Source: an uncultured Acidobacteriota bacterium (GTDB lineage: Bacteria; Acidobacteriota; Vicinamibacteria; Vicinamibacterales; CAVVIG01). Taken from it: a stretch of DNA of 64,000 nt. Position 1 is the stretch's first letter, and every line of letters begins with the position of its first letter. Made by a program: the position numbers and the translations under genes. Positions 16,998 to 39,304 of this stretch are shown here, piece after piece. The notes beneath the pieces are model-generated. The model did no database searches. It worked only from the letters and a program-made list of their open reading frames with translations, and was not told the DNA's origin. The stretch is from assembly GCA_963794305.1 (NCBI GenBank), contig CAWCDQ010000045.1, forward strand, positions 64,138 through 128,137. The letters are read 5' to 3'.

Positions 16998-18254
16998 TTA
17001 CGCGTACATCCCGCGCATCCGCGTGACGGTGGCGACGCGGCTGATCGCGACGATGTAGGCGGCTGTCCGCATGTCGACCTTGTACTTCAGCGAGGTCTCC
17101 AGCACGGCATGGAACGCCTCGCACATCTTGGCTTCGAGCCGTTCGTTGACTTCCTTCTCGGTCCAGAAGTACCCGTACCGATCCTGCACCCACTCGAAGT
17201 AGGACGTCGTGACACCGGAGCTGTTGGCGAGAATATCGGGCACGACGAACACGCCGTGGTCGTGCAGGTACTTGTGCGCGTCGGGCGTCGTCGGGCCGTT
17301 GGCGCCTTCGATGATGATCTTCGCCTTGATGGACGGCGCGTTGTCGATCGTGATCTGATTCTCGAGCGCGGCAGGAATCAGGATGTCCACGTCGAGCGAG
17401 AAGAGGTCGGCGTTGGTCAGCGGTTCGCCGCCGGAGTACCCGTCGACCGTCTTGTGCTGCTTGACATAGTCGAGCAGCGCAGGGATGTCGAGGCCTTTGG
17501 CGTTGTAGAGGCCGCCCTTCCAGTCGGTGACGGCGACGATGGTCGCGCCGACTTGCGAGGCGAGCAGCTCGGCTGAAATCGAGCCGACGTTGCCGAAGCC
17601 CTGGACTGCGACTTTCGCGCCCTTGATGTTGAGGCCGACGTGGTTGGCCGATTCGCGCGCCGCGATCATGACGCCGCGTCCCGTCGCTTCGCGCCGGCCG
17701 AGCGAACCGCCCATCTCGATCGGTTTGCCGGTGACCACGGCCGTCGAGGTGTGGCCAACGTGCATGGAGTAGGTGTCCATCACCCACGCCATGATCTGCG
17801 CATCGGTGTTGACGTCGGGCGCAGGAACGTCTTTCTCGGGACCGATCGCGTCGACGATCTCCGCGATGTAGCGGCGCGTCAGCGCCTCGACTTCGCGCCT
17901 CGACATCTTCGTGGGATCGCAGATCACGCCGCCCTTGCCGCCGCCGAACGGGATGTGCGCGACGGCGCATTTCCAGGTCATCCACGCCGCCAGCGCCGTG
18001 ACTTCGTCGAGCGTCACTCCCGGGTGGAACCGGATGCCGCCCTTGGCCGGACCGAGCGTGATGTTGTACTGGACCCGATAGCCGGTGAAGACTTCGATCT
18101 CGCCGTTGTCCATCTGGATCGGACAGGAGACCGTGATTTGACGTTTCGGGTTGGTGAGGATCTTCCAGATGCCCGGCTCGAGATTGAGGATGCGGGCGGC
18201 TCCGTCGAACTCCTGGAGCATCGCGTTGAAAATCGAACCGTTCGTAGCCGCCAT
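16998..18254 (-). CDS. gdhA: Glutamate dehydrogenase (Glu/Leu/Phe/Val dehydrogenase family)
   Basis: 418-aa ORF with [17 protein letters not shown] and GFGNVG (Rossmann) motifs. Confidence 0.92.
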
Positions 18255-27753: not shown

Positions 27754-29031
27754 ATGAAGACCGGCGACGTCATCCCGCTCGCGATTGAGAAGCCGGCTGT
27801 CGGCGGAGCCATGATTGGGCGTCACGACGGGCGCGTGGTGCTCGTGTCCGGCGCGATTCCGGGCGAGCGCGTACAGGCGCGCATCGGCCGCGTGGCCAAG
27901 GGCATGGCGCTTGCGGATGCCGTGACGATTGACGAGCCGTCGCCGGATCGCCGCTCGTCGTCCGAGGATCCGCTGTGCGGCGGTTGCCTCTACCGGCACA
28001 TCGCGTACGCGCGCCAGCTCGAGATCAAGAGTCAGGTCATCGCCGATGCCTTCACGCGCATCGGCCATCTCGAACTGCCTGCGCCGGTCGTCGTTGCCGG
28101 ATCGCCCGAGGAGGGCTACCGCATGCGCGCGAGGCTGCACGTGCGCGGAGGGCGGGCCGGATTCTTCCGGGAAGGGACGCACGACCTCTGCGATGCGCGA
28201 CAGACGCGGCAGCTGCTGCCGGCCTCGCTCGAGGCGCTCGATCGGTTGATGGCGGCCGTCCGCTCGATCGGCGCGCACACAGTGCGCGAGATCGAACTGT
28301 CCGAGAATGTCGACGCCAGCGAGCGCGTCGTCCACCTCGAGACATCCGAGCCGGTCGATCCGCGTCTCGTCGCCAAGCTCGTTGCGGTCGACGGCTTGAC
28401 GCCCGGTCCGTACGTCACCGACACCCTGACGATCGACCAGTCATTGCTCAAGCTGCGGCGCCACGTGCTGGCGTTCTTTCAAGGCAACCGCTACCTGCTG
28501 CGCGACCTGGTGACGCACGTGACCGACCGCGTGCCGATTGGCGCGCCGCTGCTGGATCTGTATGCCGGCGTGGGACTCTTTTCGGTCGCAGCGGCCGTCC
28601 GCCGGGGAGCGATGACCGTCGCAGTTGAGGGGGACAAGGCCGCGTTCGATGATCTGTCCGCGAACGCGTCGGCGGCCGGAGCGAAGCTGACGGCGATTCG
28701 CTCGCCTATCGAGAACATTGGCGCCAGCCTGACGAAGTCCAGGCCCGCGTGGCCGACGCTGAGGCAGGCGGCACTGGCGGCGGGCGCACCGCCGCTCGAA
28801 GTCGTCATCGTCGATCCGCCGCGGACCGGGATGTCGCCCGAGGCGCTCGGCGGCGTCGTTGCGATGAAGCCGCCGCGACTCATCTACGTATCGTGCGATG
28901 TAGCGACGCTCGCGCGCGATGCCCGGAAGATCGTCGACGCCGGCTATGCGATCGAGCGTGCCGACGCCTTCGACATGTTTCCGAACACGCCGCACGTGGA
29001 GACGGTGGTGGTGTTCAACAGGACGGCCTGA
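27754..29031 (+). CDS. TRAM-domain SAM-dependent RNA (uracil-5-)methyltransferase, RlmD/TrmA family
   Basis: 425-aa ORF with a CGGCLYRH Cys cluster, IVDPPRTGMS, and the YVSCDVATLARD catalytic-Cys motif. Confidence 0.85.
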   Translation: MKTGDVIPLAIEKPAVGGAMIGRHDGRVVLVSGAIPGERVQARIGRVAKGMALADAVTIDEPSPDRRSSSEDPLCGGCLYRHIAYARQLEIKSQVIADAFTRIGHLELPAPVVVAGSPEEGYRMRARLHVRGGRAGFFREGTHDLCDARQTRQLLPASLEALDRLMAAVRSIGAHTVREIELSENVDASERVVHLETSEPVDPRLVAKLVAVDGLTPGPYVTDTLTIDQSLLKLRRHVLAFFQGNRYLLRDLVTHVTDRVPIGAPLLDLYAGVGLFSVAAAVRRGAMTVAVEGDKAAFDDLSANASAAGAKLTAIRSPIENIGASLTKSRPAWPTLRQAALAAGAPPLEVVIVDPPRTGMSPEALGGVVAMKPPRLIYVSCDVATLARDARKIVDAGYAIERADAFDMFPNTPHVETVVVFNRTA

Positions 29032-29064
29032 GAGTCTTCCGCGCGTCGCCCACGAGCGCGGGGC

Positions 29065-29087
29065 GCCCCGCGGGTTTGCCGCGGGGC
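29065..29087. terminator. GC-rich hairpin between the convergent methyltransferase and micro-peptide genes
   Basis: g-ccccgcgg-gtttg-ccgcgggg-c: 9-bp stem, 5-nt loop, no U-tract on either strand. Confidence 0.35.
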
Positions 29088-29164
29088 CAGCTGTCTTCAG
29101 ACTCCGATCGGGACGATCTCACATGTCGCGGCGAATGCCGGCCTCGGCCCGGTGGGGAGTCGAG

Positions 29165-29317
29165 TTACCCGAGCGGGTTGCGTTTCAGTCCGCCGACAAC
29201 GTTCCGGAGTTCCGAACCGGTCGGCTCCTTCGGCTTGAGCGTTTTTAGAGAGGCTTTCCGGGTGGCGTCGGCGGGACTCGCGGACGACGGTCTCTTGTTC
29301 TTGGTGGACTTCTTCAT
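29165..29317 (-). CDS. Unlisted 50-codon ORF: candidate double-glycine-leader precursor peptide with 7-residue cargo
   Basis: My own translation of the reverse complement gives MKKSTKNKRPSSASPADATRKASLKTLKPKEPTGSELRNVVGGLKRNPLG*. GGAGGG (plus-strand ccctcc 29323-29328) lies 5 nt upstream of the ATG at 29317. The ORF sits 110 nt downstream of the SelO-like gene on the same strand, next to a C39 exporter. It is too short for the 60-aa ORF track. Confidence 0.55.
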   Translation of the reverse strand: MKKSTKNKRPSSASPADATRKASLKTLKPKEPTGSELRNVVGGLKRNPLG

Positions 29318-29427
29318 GACAACCCTCCATGCTGCGACGACCTGCTCAGCGGTGTCGCAAGCTGATACGAAATGCGAATCAGCGCGCGAATGCTAGCACA
29401 TCATCGGCTGCTCCTTCCAACGAGAAC

Positions 29428-31089
29428 TCAGCGCCTGCCGCACACCTCCACCCCTCGCCGAGTCATTCCGTCGAGCGCGGCCGATCCGACCGGGTTGTGA
29501 GCCAGAATCCCGTCGATAAATGCCTGCACCCGACGAGGATATTGTTGCCCCCGATCCGAATACTGACGAACCAGTGAGGAGATCCGCGAAACAAGCCGCG
29601 CACGTCGGTACGCGTGCAATGGGACATGACCGTGTTCTGCGCGCGAGCACATTGCGTCGCACACGGTCCGCCATTTCTCCGAATCGCTGGCGGTGACGAG
29701 CCGCGCTGCGGCCATGACTTCTCCGTAAGCGCGCGTCAGCCGATCCAGATGCCTGTGCGCGAGTTCGCGAGTACGCCGCCGCCGAGCCATCGTCCCGGAC
29801 ACCTGAATGCGCGCCAGTGTGCGAACCACTTCGGTATGATCCGCCTCCGGGCGCCGGAGGTAGCGTCGCGGCAACAACGAGAGCAGCCGAAACACATCCA
29901 CCACGCTGATGCCCCGGCCGGTCGCGGTCCTCGCGTCCAGCGTTCCCGGATTTCTGAGCGCTATCAGACGACTCAGCACCTGCACGAAGCGCCCGACGAC
30001 CGGAGGGTGATGGCATCGCACGCGGAGGGCGAGGGTCTCGTCGAACCCGGCGGCCTTCAGAAACTGAATCGAGAGCTCTTCCTCGTAGCACCTGTGAAAT
30101 TCGGCGACGCAATCAAGGCCGTCGGCGCCGAGAGCGCTCCGTCGTTCAGGCGTCAGCGACTCCGTCACGCACAGAAACATCGCGTGCAGGTGCGGCACTC
30201 TGGAGAGGTGTTCCCGCCCGAAGACCGCGTCACGGCGTCGTTGACGCGCGGCGTGCATCGGCGCAGTGCGGTCCTGTGTCGTCATCAGCCACACATCGAG
30301 CATCTCGCCAAACAGCCCCATGTTCGATGTGGAGAGCGCTCCGTGCAGCACGCGCCATCGGACTTGCTCGGCGGCCGTGCGAGCCTGCAGGCGAAGGATG
30401 CGCCGCATCGTATCGGCCAGCTGCGGTCGGCCGTCTCTTGTGACCAGGACGCCACCGTATCGGGCGAGCTTCACGAAGAGCGTCGGCAGATCGCTGAGGT
30501 CTTCGCCGAGCTGCCGAACCAAATGCGCTGGACGATAGGGTGCACCACAGCGGGCAATCACCGCCGCGCGCGCAAGACCGCCATCGACCTCCACGGTGCG
30601 TCCTTGATCGAGAATCGCCACGACCCGTGCGGCACCAGCCGAGAAGATACGCGTCGCGAGCTCGCCGTAGACGGCCTCGGCGATCGCGTGAACAAGTTGG
30701 AGCCCGCCGTCCCGATGACGCGGGCCGCCCACGCCCGCCAGCGGCGTCCGCCCGATCCCTTTGAGGAACACGTTCTTCGAGAGCAAGATGCCGCCTCGAG
30801 CCGAGCCCGCGTGGTCGCCCATGGCGGAACCGTAGTACCGATCGCAATGGAGTGTGACGACAGCACGGCGGCCCGCCGCCTGGCCAGCCTCGATCGCCCG
30901 GCACGAGAATGCGTCGACGAGCTGCCGCTCGAGGCGTCGGCTGAGGCGATTCTCGCGTGGTACTGAAAAGCCCATTTGCCGGGCGACCTCGAAGTTGCAC
31001 CACAGTACCCGCGCTGGAACGACGGCCGCCGGGAACGGCGACAGCGTGCGTGCTCCGAGAGCGCCGAATCGAAGAGAAGGCGCGCGCAT
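29428..31089 (-). CDS. Divergent SelO/YdiU-like kinase-fold protein (putative nucleotidyltransferase) with long Arg-rich helical C-terminal extension
   Basis: 553-aa intact ORF. By-eye matches to SelO family motifs: RYYGSAMGDHAGSARGGILL, FLKGIGRTP (Lys of LKGxGxTP), DGGLQLVHAIAEAVYGE, and RVLHGALSTSNMGLFGEMLDVW (compare HGVLNTDNMS..G.T.DYG). Confidence 0.65.
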   Translation of the reverse strand: MRAPSLRFGALGARTLSPFPAAVVPARVLWCNFEVARQMGFSVPRENRLSRRLERQLVDAFSCRAIEAGQAAGRRAVVTLHCDRYYGSAMGDHAGSARGGILLSKNVFLKGIGRTPLAGVGGPRHRDGGLQLVHAIAEAVYGELATRIFSAGAARVVAILDQGRTVEVDGGLARAAVIARCGAPYRPAHLVRQLGEDLSDLPTLFVKLARYGGVLVTRDGRPQLADTMRRILRLQARTAAEQVRWRVLHGALSTSNMGLFGEMLDVWLMTTQDRTAPMHAARQRRRDAVFGREHLSRVPHLHAMFLCVTESLTPERRSALGADGLDCVAEFHRCYEEELSIQFLKAAGFDETLALRVRCHHPPVVGRFVQVLSRLIALRNPGTLDARTATGRGISVVDVFRLLSLLPRRYLRRPEADHTEVVRTLARIQVSGTMARRRRTRELAHRHLDRLTRAYGEVMAAARLVTASDSEKWRTVCDAMCSRAEHGHVPLHAYRRARLVSRISSLVRQYSDRGQQYPRRVQAFIDGILAHNPVGSAALDGMTRRGVEVCGRR

Positions 31090-31110
31090 ACGCCGCGTAG
31101 AATACCGTGT

Positions 31111-32181
31111 GTGCCGTCATGCTTGGCGAACCCTCGATGGAAGCAGGGAGTGTTTTCTGTCGGCGGTCGCGATTACGAGTGGCTGGACATTTTTCTCGCG
31201 GCAATGCTGCGCGGTGAGTGGCGCGCGTTCGAGACGCGACTGGTTGAAGCCCTTGCCTGCCTGGCTGAAGCAAGCGAGGAGCAGTATTGGCCCGACGCGG
31301 ACCGCATCGACGCCGCAGCGAGCGCCTTCCGGTACGATCGCGACCTCCTGACGAGCGACGCGACCATTGCCTGGATCGAGCAGGAGGGTCTGACCCTCGA
31401 CGACTGGACCAACTTCCTGGTGGGACGCCTCCTCGTCGAGGAGTGGAGCGATCGACTCGCGCTGGTCGATCGGCATGCGCCGTCGCCGACTGTCACAGAT
31501 AGCGCCTTCGCCGCCGAGGGCATCTGCTCCGGAGCCTTCGATGCATGGGCCAGCACCCTCGCCGGACGGGCCGCCGTCGCGGCGACGGCGGCGAACGTCG
31601 AACTGGAGCACGCGCCCATCGACGATGCGCGCCTCGAGCGGGCTCGAAGGGATCATTCGGCCTGGCTCGAGCCGATCGAGCCAGCCATCCTTGCCGATCG
31701 GCTGATGTTCCTGGACCGGCTGCACTCGACGTTTGACGCACAGGCGCGAGCCAGGACCACGCCTGAGGCGCTTACCGCGCAACTCACGCGCAATCGCCTC
31801 GAATGGATGCGGGTGGACCTGGAACGCCTCTCGTTCGCCACTGTCGATGCGGCGCGCGAAGCGGCGTGGTGTGTGCTCGAAGACGGGCTCACCCTTGATG
31901 ACATTGCCGTCGATTTAGGGCTTGCCGTCCACGACTCGTGCGAGCTGATCGAGCGGCTCGACCCCGAGGTGCGCGAGGCTGTCCTTGGCGCCAACGTCGA
32001 TCAGCTCATCGGACCGGTGAAGGTTGGCGACCGCTACGAGGTGATCTGGGTTGTCGGCAAGGCTGTACCAGACCTCGCCGATCCGTTGGTCTCCGCCCGC
32101 GCGGCGACCGCCGCGATCGAACAACTGGTCGCGATGGCCACACGCTCGCACGTCCGCTGGGTGGGTCTGCCCCGGTTCTGA
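31111..32181 (+). CDS. Hypothetical protein with C-terminal parvulin (PpiC)-like segment
   Basis: In ORF 30976..32181, whose 5' end overlaps the divergent gene. In-frame starts are GTG 31111, TTG 31123 and GTG 31150, so the start is unresolved. The C-terminus SFATVDAAREAAWCVLEDGLTLDDIAVDLG...LGANVDQLIGPVKVGDRYEVIWVVGKAVP resembles a rotamase domain. Confidence 0.55.
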   Translation: MPSCLANPRWKQGVFSVGGRDYEWLDIFLAAMLRGEWRAFETRLVEALACLAEASEEQYWPDADRIDAAASAFRYDRDLLTSDATIAWIEQEGLTLDDWTNFLVGRLLVEEWSDRLALVDRHAPSPTVTDSAFAAEGICSGAFDAWASTLAGRAAVAATAANVELEHAPIDDARLERARRDHSAWLEPIEPAILADRLMFLDRLHSTFDAQARARTTPEALTAQLTRNRLEWMRVDLERLSFATVDAAREAAWCVLEDGLTLDDIAVDLGLAVHDSCELIERLDPEVREAVLGANVDQLIGPVKVGDRYEVIWVVGKAVPDLADPLVSARAATAAIEQLVAMATRSHVRWVGLPRF

Positions 32182-32229: not shown

Positions 32230-35200
32230 GTGGCGCGAGTGAGCGACCATGGCGTTCTCGACGAGTTGCCGATCCTCAGATTCCTGCCGGAGGGCGTTCG
32301 GGCGAACGTGATCCGGCGGTTCGTGCCGGCTTCGTTTCCGTTCGGCTCGGTGATCGTCGCTGAAGGCTCGCCCTCCGACGCGTTCTACGTCCTCGTATCT
32401 GGCAAAGCGCGCGTGGTCAAACGCGGCTCGACCGGAGACGAAATCCCCCTGAACGTGCTGCGCGCGGGCGACAGTGTCGGTGAAGCCGAGCTCCTGGATG
32501 GTGCGGTGCGCCCGTCAACAGTGCGGGCGAGCACACACGTTCTGGCGCTGCGGCTCGATGCCGACGAATTCCGGACCCTCGTCGATGCTCACCCCGACAT
32601 CCGGACCTACCTCGAACTGCAGCTCAAACACGCCCGCCTGCAAGCCTTCTTTCGCAACATGCCGGCGTTTGCGCGGCTGCCGGCTGAAGCGGTCGCTGGA
32701 GTGGTCCTTGCCGAACTGGAACCAGTGGTCCTCGACGCTGGCGAACTCGTCTACCGTCACGGCGACTCCGCCGGACCGCTGTATCTGATTGAACAAGGCC
32801 GCGTGCGTGTCCTGCAGAGCGCCAACGGTCGTTCGAACTATGTGGCGACGCTGGGAGCGGGCGAATCGTTTGGCATCGTGTCAGCGGTGCGCCGATCGCC
32901 CCGGACCACCACCGTCGAGACCATGACATCGGTACGGCTCCTGACCCTCAGCGGCGAGACGCTGGAGCGTCTCGCCGCGGCCTTGCCACAATTCCGCACA
33001 ATGCTGGACGACTGGATCGCTCAGCACGATTTCCGCAACATCGCCAACGTTCCGGCCGACATCGATCAGGAGCTGCTGCCCGCAGGTGCTGCGGCGCAAC
33101 AGTCCGTCAGCGAAGCCCAGGTCGATCAAACGGAAGACGAGGTCGACGAGGCCGATCTCGATGCGCCATTTGCTGAAGGCGGCCACTTCGTCAAGGCTCA
33201 CCGCCGTCGACGCGTGCCCTTCATCCAGCAAATCGACGAGGTGGATTGTGGCGCAGCATGCCTGGCGATGGTCACTCGCGCGTTTGGTCGGCGCGTCAGC
33301 CTCGCCCGCATTCGTCAGCTCGTGAACACCGGTCTGGACGGCACCAGTCTTCGATCGATCTGCCGAGCGGGCGAAGAACTGGGCCTGGCGACTCGCGCGG
33401 TCAAGTCGGCGACCGGCCATCTCGACCAGATGCCTCTGCCCGCCATCGTCCACTGGGACAAGTACCACTGGATCGTCGTGGTTACCGTCGATCGGAAGCA
33501 CGTCAAGGTGATCGATCCCGCTCTGGGGCGGCGGACGCTGGCGCGGGCGGAGTTCGAGAGCAGATGGAGTGGCTACGCAGCGCTGTTCGACTACACGCCC
33601 GACTTCGAGCAGGCACCGCAAGCGACTCGCCGGCTGGCGTGGACGTGGTCGCTCGTCAGGCCGCACGCGGGGCTTCTGGCGCAAGGCCTGGGGCTGGCCG
33701 TTGTCGTGAGCGCGCTGCAGATGGTGCTGCCCGTGTTCACGCAGGTGATCGTCGACCGCGTTCTCGTCGATCAGGATCTCTCGCTGCTCTATCTCCTCAT
33801 CGTCGCCATGGCCACGACGATGGTGTTCATCGTTATGTCGCTGTTGTTGCAGCGGTACCTGGTGAGCTTCTCCGCGGTCCGTATCGACGCGGCCGCCCTC
33901 GACTACATCACCCGGCGCCTGCTCGCGCTGCCGATGTCGTACTTCGCGTCGCGGCGCACCGGCGATTTGCAGCGCCGCCTCGAAGGCGTTCGACACGTAC
34001 GAGACGTCCTCGCCCAGCATGGCATCGCCGGCATCACTGCTGTCGCGCAGCTCGGCGCGACCGTCATGCTGATGGCGTTCTACAGCCGATGGCTGACCGT
34101 GGTGTTTCTCGCAACCGCGCCGCTCTACGCCCTGTTGATGCTCATGGCCGCCAAGCTGCTGCGGCCGATCTTCCTGGATCTCGAGGATTCATTCAGCAAG
34201 TACCACTCGTATCAAATCGACGCGATCAAGGGGATTGAAACAGTCAAGGCTCTGGGCGGCGAATCGGCGTTCCGCCGGCTGCTGCTCGGCCAGTTTCTGG
34301 GGGTGTCGGACAAGATCTTCAAGGCGGACTTCACGGCGATGACCTACGAGGGGGCCATCGATGCGGTGACCTTTCTTGCCGTCGGCCTCTTCCTCTGGGC
34401 GGGGGCATACCAGGTCTTGAATGGCAGGCTGTCGATTGGCGGCCTGGTGGCATTCAACTCGCTCGTGGCGCTGGCCAACACGCCCATTCGCAATCTGCTG
34501 GTGCTCTGGGACAACCTCCAACGCTGCGACGTGCTGCTCAATCGGGTCGACGACGTGTTGCAGCAGGAACCCGAGCAGGGTCACGACCGCTCGGCACTGC
34601 GGCCGGTCTCGAGCCTCGCCGGGCACGTGACGTTGAGCAACGTCGGCTTCCGTTACGGCGGTCCTGAGGCACCCGCCATCCTCGAACACGTGACCCTCGA
34701 TGTGCCCGCCGGCAAAGTGGTCGCCATCGTCGGCCGCAGCGGATCGGGGAAGACGACGGTGGCCAAGTGCATGGCCGGTCTGCTCGAGCCGACTGAGGGC
34801 ACGATTCTCTACGATGGGCTCGACCTCAGGACGTTGAACTACCGAGATCTGCGGCGCCAGATCGGGTTTGTGCTGCAGGATTCGTATGTGTTTGCCGATA
34901 CCATCGCGCGCAACATCGCGTTCGGCGAAGACGAGCCGGACATGGACCGTGTCGCGTGGGCGGCGGAAGTGGCCGGCGCGAGCGAGTTCATCACGCGGCT
35001 GCCGTTTGGTTATGACACTCGCATCGGCGAAACCGGCCTGGCGCTGTCAGGCGGTCAACGCCAGCGGATTGCCATCGCCCGTGCCGTCTACAACAGGCCG
35101 CCGATCCTGATTTTCGACGAGGCGACCAGCTCGCTCGACGCCGAATCGGAGCGGGCGGTGCAGCAGAACATCGATTCGCTGCTCGAAGGCCGAACGGCGT

Positions 35201-35358
35201 TTGTCATCGCCCATCGAATGAGCACGGTTCAGAACGCCGACGTCATCATCGTCATCGAGCGCGGCCGGTTGGTCGAACAGGGCACTCACGACGATCTGAT
35301 CGCGCGGCGCGGCCTCTACTACTATCTGGTCAGCCAGCAGCTTGGAGCAGGTGGGTAG
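32230..35358 (+). CDS. Peptidase-C39 ABC exporter (PCAT) with two N-terminal cyclic-nucleotide-binding domains
   Basis: 1042-aa intact ORF. Two CAP-type cNMP domains (GDSVGEAELLDGAVRPSTVRA; GESFGIVSAVRRSPRTTTVET). C39 domain with IDEVDCGAACLAMV (Cys) and HWIVVV (His). Six-helix TMD. Walker A GRSGSGKTT, signature LSGGQRQRIAIARA, Walker B ILIFDEATSSLD. Confidence 0.92.
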   Translation: MARVSDHGVLDELPILRFLPEGVRANVIRRFVPASFPFGSVIVAEGSPSDAFYVLVSGKARVVKRGSTGDEIPLNVLRAGDSVGEAELLDGAVRPSTVRASTHVLALRLDADEFRTLVDAHPDIRTYLELQLKHARLQAFFRNMPAFARLPAEAVAGVVLAELEPVVLDAGELVYRHGDSAGPLYLIEQGRVRVLQSANGRSNYVATLGAGESFGIVSAVRRSPRTTTVETMTSVRLLTLSGETLERLAAALPQFRTMLDDWIAQHDFRNIANVPADIDQELLPAGAAAQQSVSEAQVDQTEDEVDEADLDAPFAEGGHFVKAHRRRRVPFIQQIDEVDCGAACLAMVTRAFGRRVSLARIRQLVNTGLDGTSLRSICRAGEELGLATRAVKSATGHLDQMPLPAIVHWDKYHWIVVVTVDRKHVKVIDPALGRRTLARAEFESRWSGYAALFDYTPDFEQAPQATRRLAWTWSLVRPHAGLLAQGLGLAVVVSALQMVLPVFTQVIVDRVLVDQDLSLLYLLIVAMATTMVFIVMSLLLQRYLVSFSAVRIDAAALDYITRRLLALPMSYFASRRTGDLQRRLEGVRHVRDVLAQHGIAGITAVAQLGATVMLMAFYSRWLTVVFLATAPLYALLMLMAAKLLRPIFLDLEDSFSKYHSYQIDAIKGIETVKALGGESAFRRLLLGQFLGVSDKIFKADFTAMTYEGAIDAVTFLAVGLFLWAGAYQVLNGRLSIGGLVAFNSLVALANTPIRNLLVLWDNLQRCDVLLNRVDDVLQQEPEQGHDRSALRPVSSLAGHVTLSNVGFRYGGPEAPAILEHVTLDVPAGKVVAIVGRSGSGKTTVAKCMAGLLEPTEGTILYDGLDLRTLNYRDLRRQIGFVLQDSYVFADTIARNIAFGEDEPDMDRVAWAAEVAGASEFITRLPFGYDTRIGETGLALSGGQRQRIAIARAVYNRPPILIFDEATSSLDAESERAVQQNIDSLLEGRTAFVIAHRMSTVQNADVIIVIERGRLVEQGTHDDLIARRGLYYYLVSQQLGAGG

Positions 35359-35359
35359 G

Positions 35360-36580
35360 ATGCCAAGTTCCACTGACGTGCTATTTCTGGATTCGACGCC
35401 GCCGCCGTGGGCGGCCCGCGCGTTGGCCTGGGTCCTGCTGGCGCTTTTCGGTGTGGCCGCGCTCGCGCTGATCCTCGTTCAAGTGCCCGAGACGGTCGCC
35501 GCACCCTTCGTCCTGGTTTCTGAGCACGGGTCCGATCCGGTGCGCACGCTGCACGACGGCATCGTGACGGGTGTTTCCGTCGCTGATGCCCAGACGGTCG
35601 AACCTGGCACCGTCCTCTACACCATCAGCTCCGAAGCGGTCGGCGATCGCACGGCGGAAAGGACGGCGCTTGGAAACAGCCTGTCGGGCGGGCAGATGCA
35701 TCTCGCCAACGAGCGGAGCAAGTACGACAACCAGCGTCAGGCCGATGAGCAGGAAGTCGGCCGGCTGCAGCAGCGCCTGACCGCGATCGCGTCGCAAGTG
35801 CTGCTCAAAGAACGCCAAGTGCAGAACGCGCGGGAGATCGCCGCACGCCAGCAGCGCAGTTTCGAGGAGGGCCTCACCAGCTGGATCGAAGCATCGAAAC
35901 CGAGAATGGATACCGATCGCCTCTCCGTGGAGCTCGAAGCGGCCCGGGCGGAATCAGTGGAGACGCAGGCGGCGCTCTCGCGGCAGCGTTTCGAGATGGC
36001 CTCCCGAAAGGCGGCCTTCGACGAACTGAATCGCAGCGTCAGAGAGGAGCTCGATCGCACCCGCGTGCGCAAAGGCATGCTGGATGCCGAGTCCTCTCGG
36101 CAGGGGAGTGTCCTGACTATCCGCGCACCGTGCTCGGGGACCATCCTGAAGCTGGTGGTCCGAAACCCCGGCACCGTGGTGCACGGCTCCGAGGTGCTCG
36201 CCGAGATCACGTGCCGCGACAATCGGCTGCAGGCCGAGCTGATGGTGCCGCAGCGTGGGCTGGCGATTTTGCGAGCCGGGCAACCGGTCAAGCTGCAGTA
36301 CGACGCCTTCCCGTATCAACGCTTTGGCGTGCGCTACGCGACGCTTCGTTGGATCAGCCCAGCTTCGTCTACGCCGGAGACCGGTGGATCGTTTCGAGCG
36401 CTGGCAGACTTGGACGACCAGATTCTCCACATCGGCGGCCAGCCCCGCGCCGTCCTGCCGGGCATGGGCGGTCAGGCGTCCATCGTGGTCGGACGGCGAT
36501 CCTTGGCGAGCTACGCACTGGAGCCGCTGCGCCAAATGCGCGAGGTGATGTCATCGGGTCGATCCGCCGGCGGAATCTAG
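35360..36580 (+). CDS. HlyD-family membrane-fusion (periplasmic adaptor) protein
   Basis: In ORF 35342..36580, with the ATG at 35360 just after the exporter stop. N-terminal TM, long coiled coil (QRQADEQEVGRLQQRL...), C-terminal beta-barrel (GQPVKLQYDAFPYQRFG...LPGMGGQASIVVGRRSL). Confidence 0.85.
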   Translation: MPSSTDVLFLDSTPPPWAARALAWVLLALFGVAALALILVQVPETVAAPFVLVSEHGSDPVRTLHDGIVTGVSVADAQTVEPGTVLYTISSEAVGDRTAERTALGNSLSGGQMHLANERSKYDNQRQADEQEVGRLQQRLTAIASQVLLKERQVQNAREIAARQQRSFEEGLTSWIEASKPRMDTDRLSVELEAARAESVETQAALSRQRFEMASRKAAFDELNRSVREELDRTRVRKGMLDAESSRQGSVLTIRAPCSGTILKLVVRNPGTVVHGSEVLAEITCRDNRLQAELMVPQRGLAILRAGQPVKLQYDAFPYQRFGVRYATLRWISPASSTPETGGSFRALADLDDQILHIGGQPRAVLPGMGGQASIVVGRRSLASYALEPLRQMREVMSSGRSAGGI

Positions 36581-36595
36581 TGTTGGTCGAAATCC

Positions 36596-37285
36596 TCAGC
36601 TCTTCTGCGCCGTTTCGAGAAATCCCTCGAACAGCGCCCGGAATTCTCCCGTTCGGAAAAAATTCTCGGGATGCCATTGAACCCCGAGACAGAAGAGCGC
36701 CTTCGGATCCTCGATGGCCTCGATGACGCCGTCCGGCGCCGTCGCCGATATGACGAAGCCGCGCGCGACAGCCTTCACCGCCTGATGGTGACGGCTGTTC
36801 ACCTCGAGCGCCTCGTCAACAAGGCGATCGCGCATCAGTTTTGCGAGCAGCGAGTCCTTGTCGACCCAGACCTCGTGCGCCAACTCGTACGGCTGGTGCT
36901 GCGGCACCGGCAGGCTGTGCGCGAGCGCGCCCGCGATCTGCGACGGGATGTCCTGCACGAGCGTCCCGCCGCACGCGACATTGAGCACTTGAACGCCGCG
37001 GCAGATGGCGAGGATCGGCAGATTGCGCGCGCGCGCCGCGAGGATCAGCGCAATCTCGAATTCATCCCGTCCGGGCTCCGCCTCCTCGACCGTCTCGTGA
37101 GCGGCCTCGCCGTACCTCGACGGCGCGACGTCTCCGCCGCCCGTCAGCATGAGGCCGTCGATGCCGGTCAGCGCCTGCTCGATCGGCATCGACGAGTCGA
37201 GGGTGCGCGGTTCGCCGCCGACGTGAAGAATTGACTGCCGGTAGTCCTCGAGCTTCCGGCAGGCCGCGATGCCAATGACTGTCAT
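36596..37285 (-). CDS. Class I glutamine amidotransferase / peptidase C26 (gamma-glutamyl-GABA-hydrolase-like)
   Basis: MTVIGIA... at 37285 within ORF 36596..37375. Motifs PILAICRGVQVLN (Cys) and GVQWHPE (His). Confidence 0.85.
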   Translation of the reverse strand: MTVIGIAACRKLEDYRQSILHVGGEPRTLDSSMPIEQALTGIDGLMLTGGGDVAPSRYGEAAHETVEEAEPGRDEFEIALILAARARNLPILAICRGVQVLNVACGGTLVQDIPSQIAGALAHSLPVPQHQPYELAHEVWVDKDSLLAKLMRDRLVDEALEVNSRHHQAVKAVARGFVISATAPDGVIEAIEDPKALFCLGVQWHPENFFRTGEFRALFEGFLETAQKS

Positions 37286-37287
37286 GG

Positions 37288-39304
37288 TCACATTCGATTC
37301 GGGATGTCTATGCCCATCAGATCGAGCGCCCGCGTGAGCTGCGCGCGCACGTATGCCACACCGGCGGCGCGCCACCGCTTCCGATCCGCGTCTTCTTCGC
37401 CCAGGATCGGATACCGATGGTAGAACGCGTTGAACGTCTGCGCCAGCCCGAACGTGTACTTGGCCAGGCCCGAGAACTCCAGCGATCGGACGACCGACTC
37501 GACTACCTCATCCAGGCGCGATGCCTCGAAGACCACGGCCCACAGGTCGTGGGTCGGGTCGTCGGACCCTTCGGCGAGCTCGCTGGCTGACGCCGGGTCG
37601 AGCCCTGCAAGCACGTCCGCCTCCGAGACGCCTTCGCGTTCCTGCAGCTTGTGCAGGATATTGCGCGCGCGGACGACGGCGTACTGCAGGTACGGGCCGG
37701 TCTCACCTTCGAAACTCAGCGCCTCTTCGATGTCGAACACGATCAGCTTGCCGCGGGAGAACTTCAGCATGAAGTACCGGATCGCCGCGACGGCGATCTG
37801 CGCGCCGGCGCGCTGGCACTCCTCCGGAGGTGAACTCAGGGTTGCGCTGCGCGACCTCGGCCGCCGCCTTGTTCGTCAACAGGTCGAGCAGATCGTCAAT
37901 CTTGACGCCGAGCCCCTTCCGTCCGGAGACCTCGACGAACGGCTTCCGCGCGTCTTCCGCCGCTGTTTCGTAGCCCAGTTCGCGCGCCGTCGCGTGCGAC
38001 AGCGCGACCATCTCGTAGGAGAAATGAATCGAGTTCTCGGCTTCCGTCGGATGTCCCAGCGTCCGCAGCGCCTGGCTGAGCAGCGCCTGCAGATACATCT
38101 GCCGCGAGTCGATGACGTTGAAGATCCGTCGTGCGTTTCCGAACGATGGCGCTCCCGGATCGGTGTCTGCCGAGGTCGTGGCCCACAACGAACGCTCATG
38201 CGCCTGCATCGCGAATCGCCGATAGCGGAAATCGAGACCAAGGAGCCCGAACTTCCAGAACTGGTTGGCGAGATCCTTGCCAACGTAGGTGACGACGCCG
38301 TTCGAGCGGACGATGACTTTCTCTCGCTGCTCGGGATCCTCGCCCTCGTCGGACTGGTCCGCGGCTGGTTGTCCGTCCGCGCTCTTCGCGGTTCCGTCGT
38401 CGATTCGCATGACCCAGCAGCCGGCGAGCTTGCCTTCCGTTTGCAGGAACACCGCTCCCTGGGCTTTCAGCGTTTCGAAGGCGTGCGTCCAGAAGTGCAG
38501 GCGCAGGATGTCGCCCTCGTAGGTCAGCAGGTCGTAACCGATGTTGAGGCGCGCCATCGTCTTCAGGTGCGCGCGGACGATGCGATCGACGATGAACGTG
38601 CCCATCGCGGCGGTGTCGTTGCCGCCGTGCTCGAGGTCGTGCAGAACGGCGGCGCGGATGGCCAGGCGCTGCTTGTCGCCGTCGTACCATTCGGTGACCC
38701 TGGAGTACAGATCCCAGCAGTAGTAGTCGAAGCGCGTGGTGTCCGCGATCGTTCGCACGGCGTCGAGCGTCAGCTGTTCGATCTCCCGGAACCCGACGAT
38801 GACGTCGGCCACCTGAACGCCCGTGTCGTCGATGTAGTTCTGGGTCTCGACCGGCGTGCCGCGGAAACTCAAGGCCCGCACCAGCGTGTCGCCGAGCGCC
38901 GCATTGCGGAGGTGGCCGATGTGCGCGGCCTTGTTCGGGTTGATCGCCGTGTGCTCGACGATGGTTTTCTCCCGCGCTTCCAGCGCCGGTGTCACCTGTT
39001 GACGAACGCGGGCGGTGAAGAACGGAGCGCGCTCGATGTACAGATTCAGGTAGCCGTTCGGCGTCGCGACAACGCGGGCGATGCCTGGAATGTCGCCAAG
39101 CGCCTGGCTGAGTTCCTGCGCGATGTTTCGCGGCGCCTTACGAAGGACGCGGGCGAGCTGGAAAGCGACGGGCACGGCGAGATCGCCAAGGGTTCGCGTC
39201 GGCGGGACTTCGATGGCGAACGCCGGCACATCGGCGACGCCGAAGTGTTTCCGGATCGCCTCGCTGATGGCGTCGTGAACGTGTCGTTGAAGGCTGAGAA
39301 TCAT
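37288..39304 (-). CDS. argS: Arginine--tRNA ligase (apparent frameshift)
   Basis: ORF 37703..39304 (N-terminal part, INPNKAAHIGHLRNA) and ORF 37288..37770 (C-terminal anticodon-binding part). They join at about 37828 (NPEFT|PEECQRAGAQIAVAAIRYFMLKFSR); one extra base. Confidence 0.9.

Follow-up and report, generated by a model that had tools for sequence, protein, structure and literature searches.

A SelO-fold protein of the MchC/MceJ branch, a predicted peptide maturase, beside a double-glycine peptide gene and an export cassette

The closest described systems to the locus treated here are those of the class IIb siderophore-microcins, which employ MchC in E. coli (microcins H47 and M) and MceJ in Klebsiella (microcin E492). 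In the latter, a complex of MceI and MceJ attaches salmochelin to the C-terminal Ser84 of the microcin, and mutants affected in any one maturation gene (mceC, mceI or mceJ) yield inactive microcin (PMC6071977); MchC and MchD serve the same purpose in the case of microcins H47 and M (PMC7472721). MchC was recognised as a distant SELO subfamily and an enterobacterial microcin-maturation protein by Dudkiewicz et al. (2012, PMC3281104), who put the MchC group at about 20 proteins, and our text searches for literature linking PF02696, YdiU or SelO with ribosomally synthesised and post-translationally modified peptides or bacteriocins found nothing other than that study. In the mch cluster of E. coli CFT073, mchC (L050:7321-8871, corresponding to NC_004431.1 1177321-1178871 and labelled "hypothetical protein" in RefSeq) adjoins a double-glycine (GG)-leader microcin gene, a gene for an HlyD-family protein and the gene of the C39-ABC exporter MchF. 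Here we analyse a 64,000-nucleotide stretch of contig CAWCDQ010000045.1 (assembly GCA_963794305.1, positions 64,138 to 128,137), hereafter the window, in which a minus-strand gene at 29428..31089 encodes a 553-aa protein that we place in the MchC/MceJ branch of the SelO superfamily, and that is predicted to be an ATP-dependent peptide maturase.

Placement in the SelO superfamily and active-site residues

Sequence comparison assigns the 553-aa protein to the MchC/MceJ branch, far closer to MchC than to YdiU. Aligned with hhalign, the profile of its family matches MchC with a probability of 99.5 (E 1.5e-22) and YdiU with 91.9 (E 7e-7), and in hidden Markov model (HMM) scoring it gives 111 bits for E. 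coli MchC against 21 bits for YdiU; a tblastn search of the window with MchC found 33% identity over 184 aa (E 1e-13). Several hallmarks are present in MchC and throughout the family and absent from YdiU, namely RYGGSG, KGIG..PL, H-x-x-G, R-x5-RPAH and a Ser-Asn catalytic loop, which in MchC reads TTSPSNIAMDGRLMDF; the motif SPSN...D is common to MchC and the family.

A previous reading of this DNA from its sequence only (hereafter the sequence-only reading) had presented the protein as a divergent SelO. It does not stand alone but belongs to a large family: a full HMM scan of 1.84 billion representatives returned 1,794 clusters (at 50% identity) at E <= 1e-3 and 1,485 at E <= 1e-10, which overturned the impression of a tiny family left by a word-indexed search of 5.8 billion proteins and its 18 relatives. 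No Pfam or NCBIfam model matches the family or E. coli MchC above threshold, and a homologue search started from E. coli YdiU returned only relatives at 79% identity or more. No close relative of the 553-aa protein was found in a scan of 185,579 species genomes; a second genome scan returned only long forms at 31-39% identity, mostly in metagenome-assembled genomes (MAGs) of Pyrinomonadaceae and Blastocatellia, together with one truncated match at 46%, and these lack the cassette described below.

The 553-aa protein has the kinase fold of the SelO superfamily. When its AlphaFold2 model, computed with the family alignment as input (pLDDT 82, pTM 0.85), was compared with the PDB by Foldseek, the nine best matches were all SelO/YdiU structures (E 7e-10 to 2e-8, TM 0.45-0.63), with ordinary kinases coming after them at E > 0.1. 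The family profile also matches four solved SelO/YdiU sequences at E of about 5e-5 (best 4.5e-5). As a single query, the protein has no Pfam match even at E <= 10 and no PDB match, so the SelO link is visible only with profiles and structure prediction; the solved SelO/YdiU structures are only about 15% identical to it. It scores 14.1 bits on the NCBIfam YdiU model (NF000658; cut-off 431), and the Pfam SelO model (PF02696; cut-off 22.8 bits) is barely passed by two homologues at 70% and 67% identity (P0004, 24.5 bits; P0007, 24.0 bits). The assignment to a SelO/YdiU-family kinase fold made in the sequence-only reading is therefore upheld at the superfamily level, profile and structure searches having returned the SelO superfamily rather than an unrelated fold.

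The pairing of motifs with SelO, made there by eye, was reproduced by proper alignment with HMMER and hhalign: FLKGIGRTP occupies residues 107-115 of the translation, DGGLQLVHAIAEAVYGE residues 126-142 and HGALSTSNMGLFGEMLDVW residues 248-266. The nucleotide-binding Lys of the KGxGxTP motif is kept as K109 (codon at 30763..30765, minus strand), which corresponds to K107 of E. coli YdiU in both alignments and to K113 of P. syringae SelO. E137 corresponds to E130 of YdiU, the alphaC Glu, and R179 to R170 in both alignments, while R185 falls on R177 in the HMMER alignment only and is shifted by hhalign. The two metal ligands are likewise kept, N255 at YdiU N247 and D264 at YdiU D256, and Ser254 stands at the Asp of TDN in YdiU, as had been read; this catalytic-loop and metal-binding segment, S254-N255...D264 (STSNMGLFGEMLD), lies at 30298..30330 on the minus strand. 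Proper alignment thus brought no loss of the nucleotide- or metal-binding residues, with the Lys, Glu, Asn and Asp all in register. The replacement of DYG by DVW is present in the protein, but it is confined to its close clade and the wider family has D-[LFY]-G.

According to the part of PMC7359531 that summarises Sreelatha et al. (2018), K113 and R176 of P. syringae SelO hold the gamma-phosphate of a flipped ATP, E136 stabilises the Lys, N253 and D262 bind Mg, and D252 is the catalytic base. The ligand set that we followed, in that numbering, is K113, E136, R176, R183, N253 and D262. Among 166 sequences aligned out of the full HMM-scan matches, the corresponding K109, E137, R179, R185, N255 and D264 are nearly invariant: the Lys is found in 140 of 144 aligned sequences (and without exception in the alignment of the 18 relatives), N255 in 145 of 146 and D264 in 147 of 147. 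Position 254, the place of the general base, is Ser in 128 of 146 sequences, Gly in 14, another residue in 4 and never Asp. Near-invariance of K109, R179, R185, N255 and D264 together with a position 254 that is never Asp speaks for an active enzyme that uses another nucleophile. The C-terminal Cxx>/Uxx> redox motif of SelO (PMC3281104) is not conserved: the protein ends in ...EVCGRR, and this Cys is not kept even at 66-88% identity. In all, the 553-aa protein departs from canonical SelO in two model thresholds, in the general base and in the C-terminal Cys motif.

The missing catalytic Asp and the scores below the curated SelO thresholds might also be taken to indicate a catalytically dead pseudoenzyme that only binds the leader or serves as a scaffold of the export complex. 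We consider this very unlikely, since more than 140 sequences, with identities as low as about 25%, keep the Lys, Glu, Asn, Asp and both Arg almost without change, which is hard to explain without catalysis. MchC has the same residue set, and loss of mceJ, like that of mceC or mceI, inactivates the microcin, as cited above.

The last 220 or so residues had been described as an extension without counterpart in SelO, and here the sequence-only reading does not hold, as most of this region corresponds to the helical half that the SelO fold normally has. Pfam SelO aligns through residue 349 of the 70%-identical homologue (model position 340 of 466), and in Foldseek 520-574 columns are aligned with SelO/YdiU structures (TM up to 0.63). 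A greedy profile alignment runs colinear as far as the end and pairs VVDVFRLL, at low confidence, with DYTRTFRML of YdiU, and the C-terminal region, including its Arg-rich helix, is conserved in all family members. Counting from DYG, E. coli YdiU (478 aa) has 222 further residues, against 289 past the equivalent Asp of the 553-aa protein; we estimate the true excess over E. coli YdiU at roughly 40-75 residues.

The window has about 66% G+C and carries long open reading frames (ORFs) on both strands, and an antisense ORF lies across the gene at 29614-30966 on the plus strand. The 553-aa ORF could accordingly be suspected of being a high-GC artefact, with the true gene, if any, on the other strand; the codon-position GC patterns of the two ORFs are almost identical and cannot separate them. 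The antisense ORF has only a sub-threshold Pfam match. Homologues of the minus-strand product range from 98% down to about 25% identity and share a set of invariant residues, those of the active site among them, and substitutions fall mostly at the third codon position of its frame (counts by position 40/43/102 against L007 and 128/93/269 against L004). It also folds confidently into a known fold, as the AlphaFold2 model and the Foldseek matches show. Because of these homologues, this substitution bias and this model we take 29428-31089 to be a real gene, placed exactly by ORF call and translation, and the artefact explanation to be refuted, with next to no probability left to it.

In MAGs of Pyrinomonadaceae, many long forms have nearby a gene for a protein of about 540-565 aa with a C-terminal low-molecular-weight (LMW) phosphotyrosine-phosphatase domain (L018:8272-9912, L020:7024-8640, L008:8014-9711), directly upstream of the long form in L018 and L020. 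An "ABC exporter" that had appeared conserved beside the long forms was an artefact of single-linkage clustering, the gene encoding this LMW-phosphatase-domain protein. The protein could be an "eraser" of a modification made by the long form, or its presence could be plain synteny among related genomes.

A precursor peptide gene and the export cassette

On the same strand, 110 nt downstream of the gene for the 553-aa protein, starts a gene for a 50-aa precursor peptide (29165..29317, minus strand), and GGAGGG, which resembles a Shine-Dalgarno site, lies a short way upstream of its ATG. It comprises a leader and a 7-aa core (MKKSTKNKRPSSASPADATRKASLKTLKPKEPTGSELRNVVGG followed by LKRNPLG), and the leader is of the textbook double-glycine type: E stands at -8, L at -7 and V at -4, and the cleavage site has GG. 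A double-glycine-leader ORF follows the enzyme gene in all seven relatives at 49% identity or more (the window counted) for which downstream sequence is available. Across the close relatives the leader is conserved and the core variable: LKRNPLG in the window and in L010, LKGRPLA in L006, LKRGPLA in L007, LGSSKGRPLA in L005, LGSRTAEK in L004 and TAATVSPALRDALNKAGSVGRA in L011. The last of these has a distinct leader type, which resembles that of the window clade in little besides the GG region, and the stop codon of its enzyme gene is followed after 5 nt by the start of the peptide ORF. Lys and Arg occur in every core, and Ser and Thr are abundant in the leader.

Three further genes lie on the plus strand, the first of which diverges from the enzyme gene, their start codons being 60 nt apart (31090-31149); a sigma-70 consensus scan of 28900-31400 found no promoter, and scanning for terminators yielded no usable signal either. 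This first gene (31150..32181) encodes a cytoplasmic SurA/PrsA-like protein of 343 aa with a chaperone and a parvulin-like domain, its start at 31150 having been set after the 343-aa gene call in L006. The AlphaFold2 model (pLDDT 94) has SurA, PEB4/Cj1289 and PrsA as its top Foldseek matches. The protein is a distant relative of TIGR04500, the PpiC-related peptide maturation protein model and its sole NCBIfam match (E 5.8e-5, 22.5 bits against a 180-bit cut-off), and nine of its ten homologues match TIGR04500 only, at 21-50 bits.

The second gene (32230..35358) encodes a peptidase-containing ABC transporter of 1042 aa whose Pfam domains are, in order, two cNMP_binding, Peptidase_C39, ABC_membrane and ABC_tran. 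The C39 motif QIDEVDCGAACL is present, the exporter is 33% identical to MchF, and it scores 521.8 bits on TIGR03796 (NHLP-type bacteriocin export ABC transporter), below the cut-off of 853. The third (35342..36580) encodes an HlyD-family membrane-fusion adaptor of 412 aa (Pfam HlyD_3 and HlyD_D23, NCBIfam TIGR01843), which tblastn matches weakly with MchE.

The same five-gene cassette is found in L006, L007 and L010. L004 has the enzyme, peptide, partner and exporter genes in this order on one strand, and its contig ends in a partial HlyD-like gene. L005 retains the enzyme-peptide pair with no exporter nearby. The peptide gene therefore stays with the enzyme gene in the exporter-less L005, as in the tightly coupled L011, and this supports a link between enzyme and peptide. 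A homologue of the SurA-like partner was also found in a Vicinamibacterales MAG, where the exporter is 73% identical to that of the window.

The genes can be viewed as two modules, one of enzyme and peptide and one of partner, exporter and adaptor, which the double-glycine leader connects logically. The second also exists apart from the first. Trios without a SelO-like gene were found at L049:10001-15522, with a peptide at 17660-17818, and at L048:10001-15700, with a peptide at about 16881. The GG-type ORF beside them is of a different kind, ...LDDL.P....GG followed by A.(K/R)RVFGA..., and L049 also has a sigma-54 activator. The export module thus seems to be shared by several peptide families.

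Two of the related loci show further peculiarities. In L005 (L005:1096-5291; a 76%-identical relative) the pair lies beside genes for JmjC-like, sulfotransferase, MvdD-type ATP-grasp and PhyH-like oxygenase proteins; these might act on the same peptide as additional tailoring enzymes, or they might form a cluster unrelated to it. In L010 (L010:9592-11921; a 92%-identical syntenic locus on a 99.5-kb ENA contig) the enzyme, partner, exporter and RlmD genes are each spread over several frames, which looks like assembly or sequencing frameshifts rather than pseudogenes.

The flanking genes examined in the window are housekeeping genes by Pfam and NCBIfam, and neither they nor the cassette include glycosyltransferase, esterase or siderophore genes (IroB- or IroD-like). 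A C26 gamma-glutamyl hydrolase-like gene (36596-37375) lies past the cassette and is followed, two genes away from the cassette, by a 533-aa arginine-tRNA-ligase-like ORF (37703-39304, minus strand; 343 bits, below the 460-bit equivalog cut-off).

Predicted maturase role and competing explanations

The analysis shows the fold, the family to which the protein belongs, which residues are conserved, and that the pairing of the genes and the cassette are conserved too; from this we infer that the peptide is the substrate and that ATP is used, as well as each chemical step set out below. With a probability of roughly 0.55, we read the ORF as an MchC/MceJ-type member of the SelO fold that acts as an ATP-dependent maturase of the small peptide encoded just downstream. 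The 50-aa precursor would be made in the cytoplasm. The enzyme would bind nucleotide in the manner of SelO, through the Lys-Glu pair, the two Arg that would hold the gamma-phosphate of a flipped ATP, and the Asn and Asp metal ligands, and would then transfer the NMP moiety to the peptide or use it there. The C39 domain would cut the double-glycine leader, and the cNMP-binding ABC transporter would, together with the HlyD adaptor, export the 7-residue product. The SurA-like protein is a possible partner or chaperone, and by analogy with MirC, discussed below, may help the enzyme.

As chemistry we favour adenylation of the C-terminal carboxylate of the peptide, because the family has Ser or Gly instead of Asp and because MceJ with MceI modifies the C-terminal residue of its microcin. 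A SelO-type site with its flipped ATP would transfer AMP, and the change from Asp to Ser or Gly would fit a carboxylate nucleophile, which needs no base and which an adjacent Asp would repel. The activated carboxylate could then be captured by an amine or a hydroxyl, either of the core Lys, which would give a lactam, or of an external molecule, which would give a conjugate. Work by Nolan and Walsh from 2007-08 reportedly found that the MceIJ reaction depends on ATP and Mg and turns the C-terminal carboxylate into an ester. In the enterobacterial systems the HlyC-like MceI or MchD would move the activated peptide onto a sugar; as no HlyC-like gene was detected here, capture would be intramolecular, a Lys being available in every core, or by another nucleophile.

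The main chemical alternative to carboxylate adenylation is that the enzyme NMPylates a side chain of the peptide or its leader, N-linked on the core Lys or Arg or O-linked on the Ser/Thr-rich leader, with the result being a nucleotide conjugate or a gating of export. All nucleotide and metal ligands of SelO are retained, every core offers Lys and Arg and the leader Ser and Thr, and N-linked adducts have precedents in the His-UMP of YdiU and in NiRAN acting on the N-terminal amine of nsp9 (PMC8017715). Against this stand the general base that the whole family lacks, the sole biochemical precedent in the branch, which concerns a peptide C-terminal residue, and the leaders of the window clade and of L011, which are alike only around the GG and yielded no acceptor residue. 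We judge side-chain NMPylation to be quite unlikely.

Carboxylate adenylation and side-chain NMPylation both take the peptide as the substrate. The enzyme might instead be a protein- or self-NMPylating regulator like SelO/YdiU that acts on cellular proteins such as the exporter or a stress target, in which case the peptide would be exported without modification, as a signal or bacteriocin, and the genes would be neighbours owing to co-regulation or immunity and not as enzyme and substrate. This would suit the long-form relatives, which stand alone with no peptide or exporter nearby and many of which adjoin the LMW-phosphatase-domain protein, which would fit a reversible protein modification; it would also suit the core LKRNPLG, which has no Ser, Thr or Tyr for an O-linked NMP, and the service of the exporter trio to other peptides in loci without the enzyme. 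On the other side, the Asp that SelO-type O-AMPylation uses as general base is absent family-wide, the peptide gene follows the enzyme gene in seven of seven close relatives, L005 and L011 included, and the nearest studied relative, MchC/MceJ, is a peptide maturase. A regulatory role is thus an unlikely though credible account.

Several further observations weigh against a maturase acting on this peptide. In the wider family most members are long forms from Pyrinomonadaceae and Blastocatellia, which are 640-800 aa in length and have an additional C-terminal domain; among 34 long-form relatives at 30-39% identity with readable downstream sequence, none had a convincing peptide gene or the cassette, and the ancestral role of the family was probably something other than peptide maturation. 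The cores have nothing universal beyond Lys, Arg and, in five of six, a small C-terminal residue, and all lack a Ser/Gly-rich C-terminal tail, so the target atom on the peptide is a guess. The trio of SurA-like partner, cNMP-C39-ABC exporter and HlyD adaptor occurs beside other GG-type peptides in the absence of a SelO-like gene, which weakens the idea of the SurA-like protein as a dedicated helper of the enzyme; it may serve export instead. A tblastn search with MchD (E <= 0.01) found no HlyC-like MchD/MceI partner in the window or the related loci, though a very divergent one would escape it, nor did Pfam find an HlyC domain in the cassette genes, so that the known two-protein mechanism of MceIJ cannot simply be transferred. 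The individual roles of MceJ/MchC and MceI/MchD are given as unknown in PMC7472721.

If a maturase role is nonetheless accepted, the close clade could represent a new class of ribosomal peptide from soil bacteria akin to Acidobacteriota, in which a cationic peptide of 7-10 residues is adenylated at its C-terminal carboxylate, or NMPylated on a side chain, by a SelO-fold enzyme with no HlyC-like helper, the product being a lactam, a small-molecule conjugate or a nucleotide conjugate that leaves by cyclic-nucleotide-gated C39 export, and in which Ser or Gly for Asp marks the carboxylate-activating members of the superfamily off from the hydroxyl-AMPylating ones. This wider proposal is tentative, and we hold it with distinctly less confidence than the maturase role itself.

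MchC and MceJ are needed for the siderophore-microcins, yet their family, of about 1,500-1,800 clusters at 50% identity, has no public model. The combination of Ser or Gly for the general base with all nucleotide and metal ligands kept suggests the hypothesis of a flipped-ATP adenylation of a carboxylate, and such carboxylate activation, if true, would also explain the role of MceJ in siderophore-microcin synthesis. The cassette, with a single enzyme, a single 50-aa precursor, a chaperone-like partner and an exporter, is a minimal system, much simpler than the microcin E492 pathway, and it suggests that a very short peptide is exported in a phylum from which few peptide products have been characterised.

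Comparison with known systems

SelO/YdiU proteins (PF02696; PDB 6EAC, 6K20, 6III and 9JYM), which are protein AMPylases/UMPylases, have the same overall fold as the 553-aa protein. The K, E, N and D of the two align, as do both Arg in the HMMER alignment. The differences are the general base, D252 in P. syringae SelO in the summary given by PMC7359531, which is Ser here and never Asp in the family, and the C-terminal Cys/Sec motif, of which no conserved form is present here. The coronavirus NiRAN domain also has a SelO-like active site and makes N-linked NMP adducts on a peptide terminus (PMC8017715), which indicates that the superfamily extends beyond O-AMPylation of Ser, Thr or Tyr; it keeps the general-base Asp, has no detectable sequence relation to the 553-aa protein and belongs to unrelated biology.

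The SurA-like architecture of the 31150-32181 protein is also that of MirC (TIGR04500), which in rosaritide biosynthesis is required by, and co-purifies with, the ATP-grasp graspetide synthetase MirB (PMC13097080). The MirC cluster described there encodes a precursor, a modifying enzyme that uses ATP and a C39 exporter, and the window cassette is alike, the ATP use of its enzyme being predicted. The SurA-like protein of the window is far below the TIGR04500 cut-off (22.5 against 180 bits), the enzyme alongside it has a SelO fold and not an ATP-grasp, and the trio that includes it is also found without the SelO-like gene.

The nearest systems remain those of MchC and MceJ, which represent the same SelO-superfamily branch with the same motifs, including Ser-Asn for Asp-Asn, and the mch cluster of CFT073 likewise combines a double-glycine-leader peptide, a C39 ABC exporter and an HlyD-family protein. 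The sequence-only reading had called a SelO-like protein in a peptide-export cassette a new context. The arrangement as such was already known from the class IIb siderophore-microcins, but the partners and the peptide do differ here. No HlyC-like partner (MchD/MceI) was detected, no siderophore, glycosyltransferase or esterase genes were seen in the cassette or examined flanks, a SurA-like partner is present instead, and the exporter has two cNMP-binding domains. Whereas the microcin precursors are 75 and 92 aa in full length with a Ser/Gly-rich tail, the cores here are 7-22 aa without such a tail, and the C-terminal half of the 553-aa protein is not alignable to MchC by BLAST. The host is probably acidobacterial, and the mch and mce hosts are enterobacterial. 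What is new in this locus is the cationic cores of 7-10 aa, the SurA-like partner, the tandem cNMP-binding domains in the exporter and the probably acidobacterial host.

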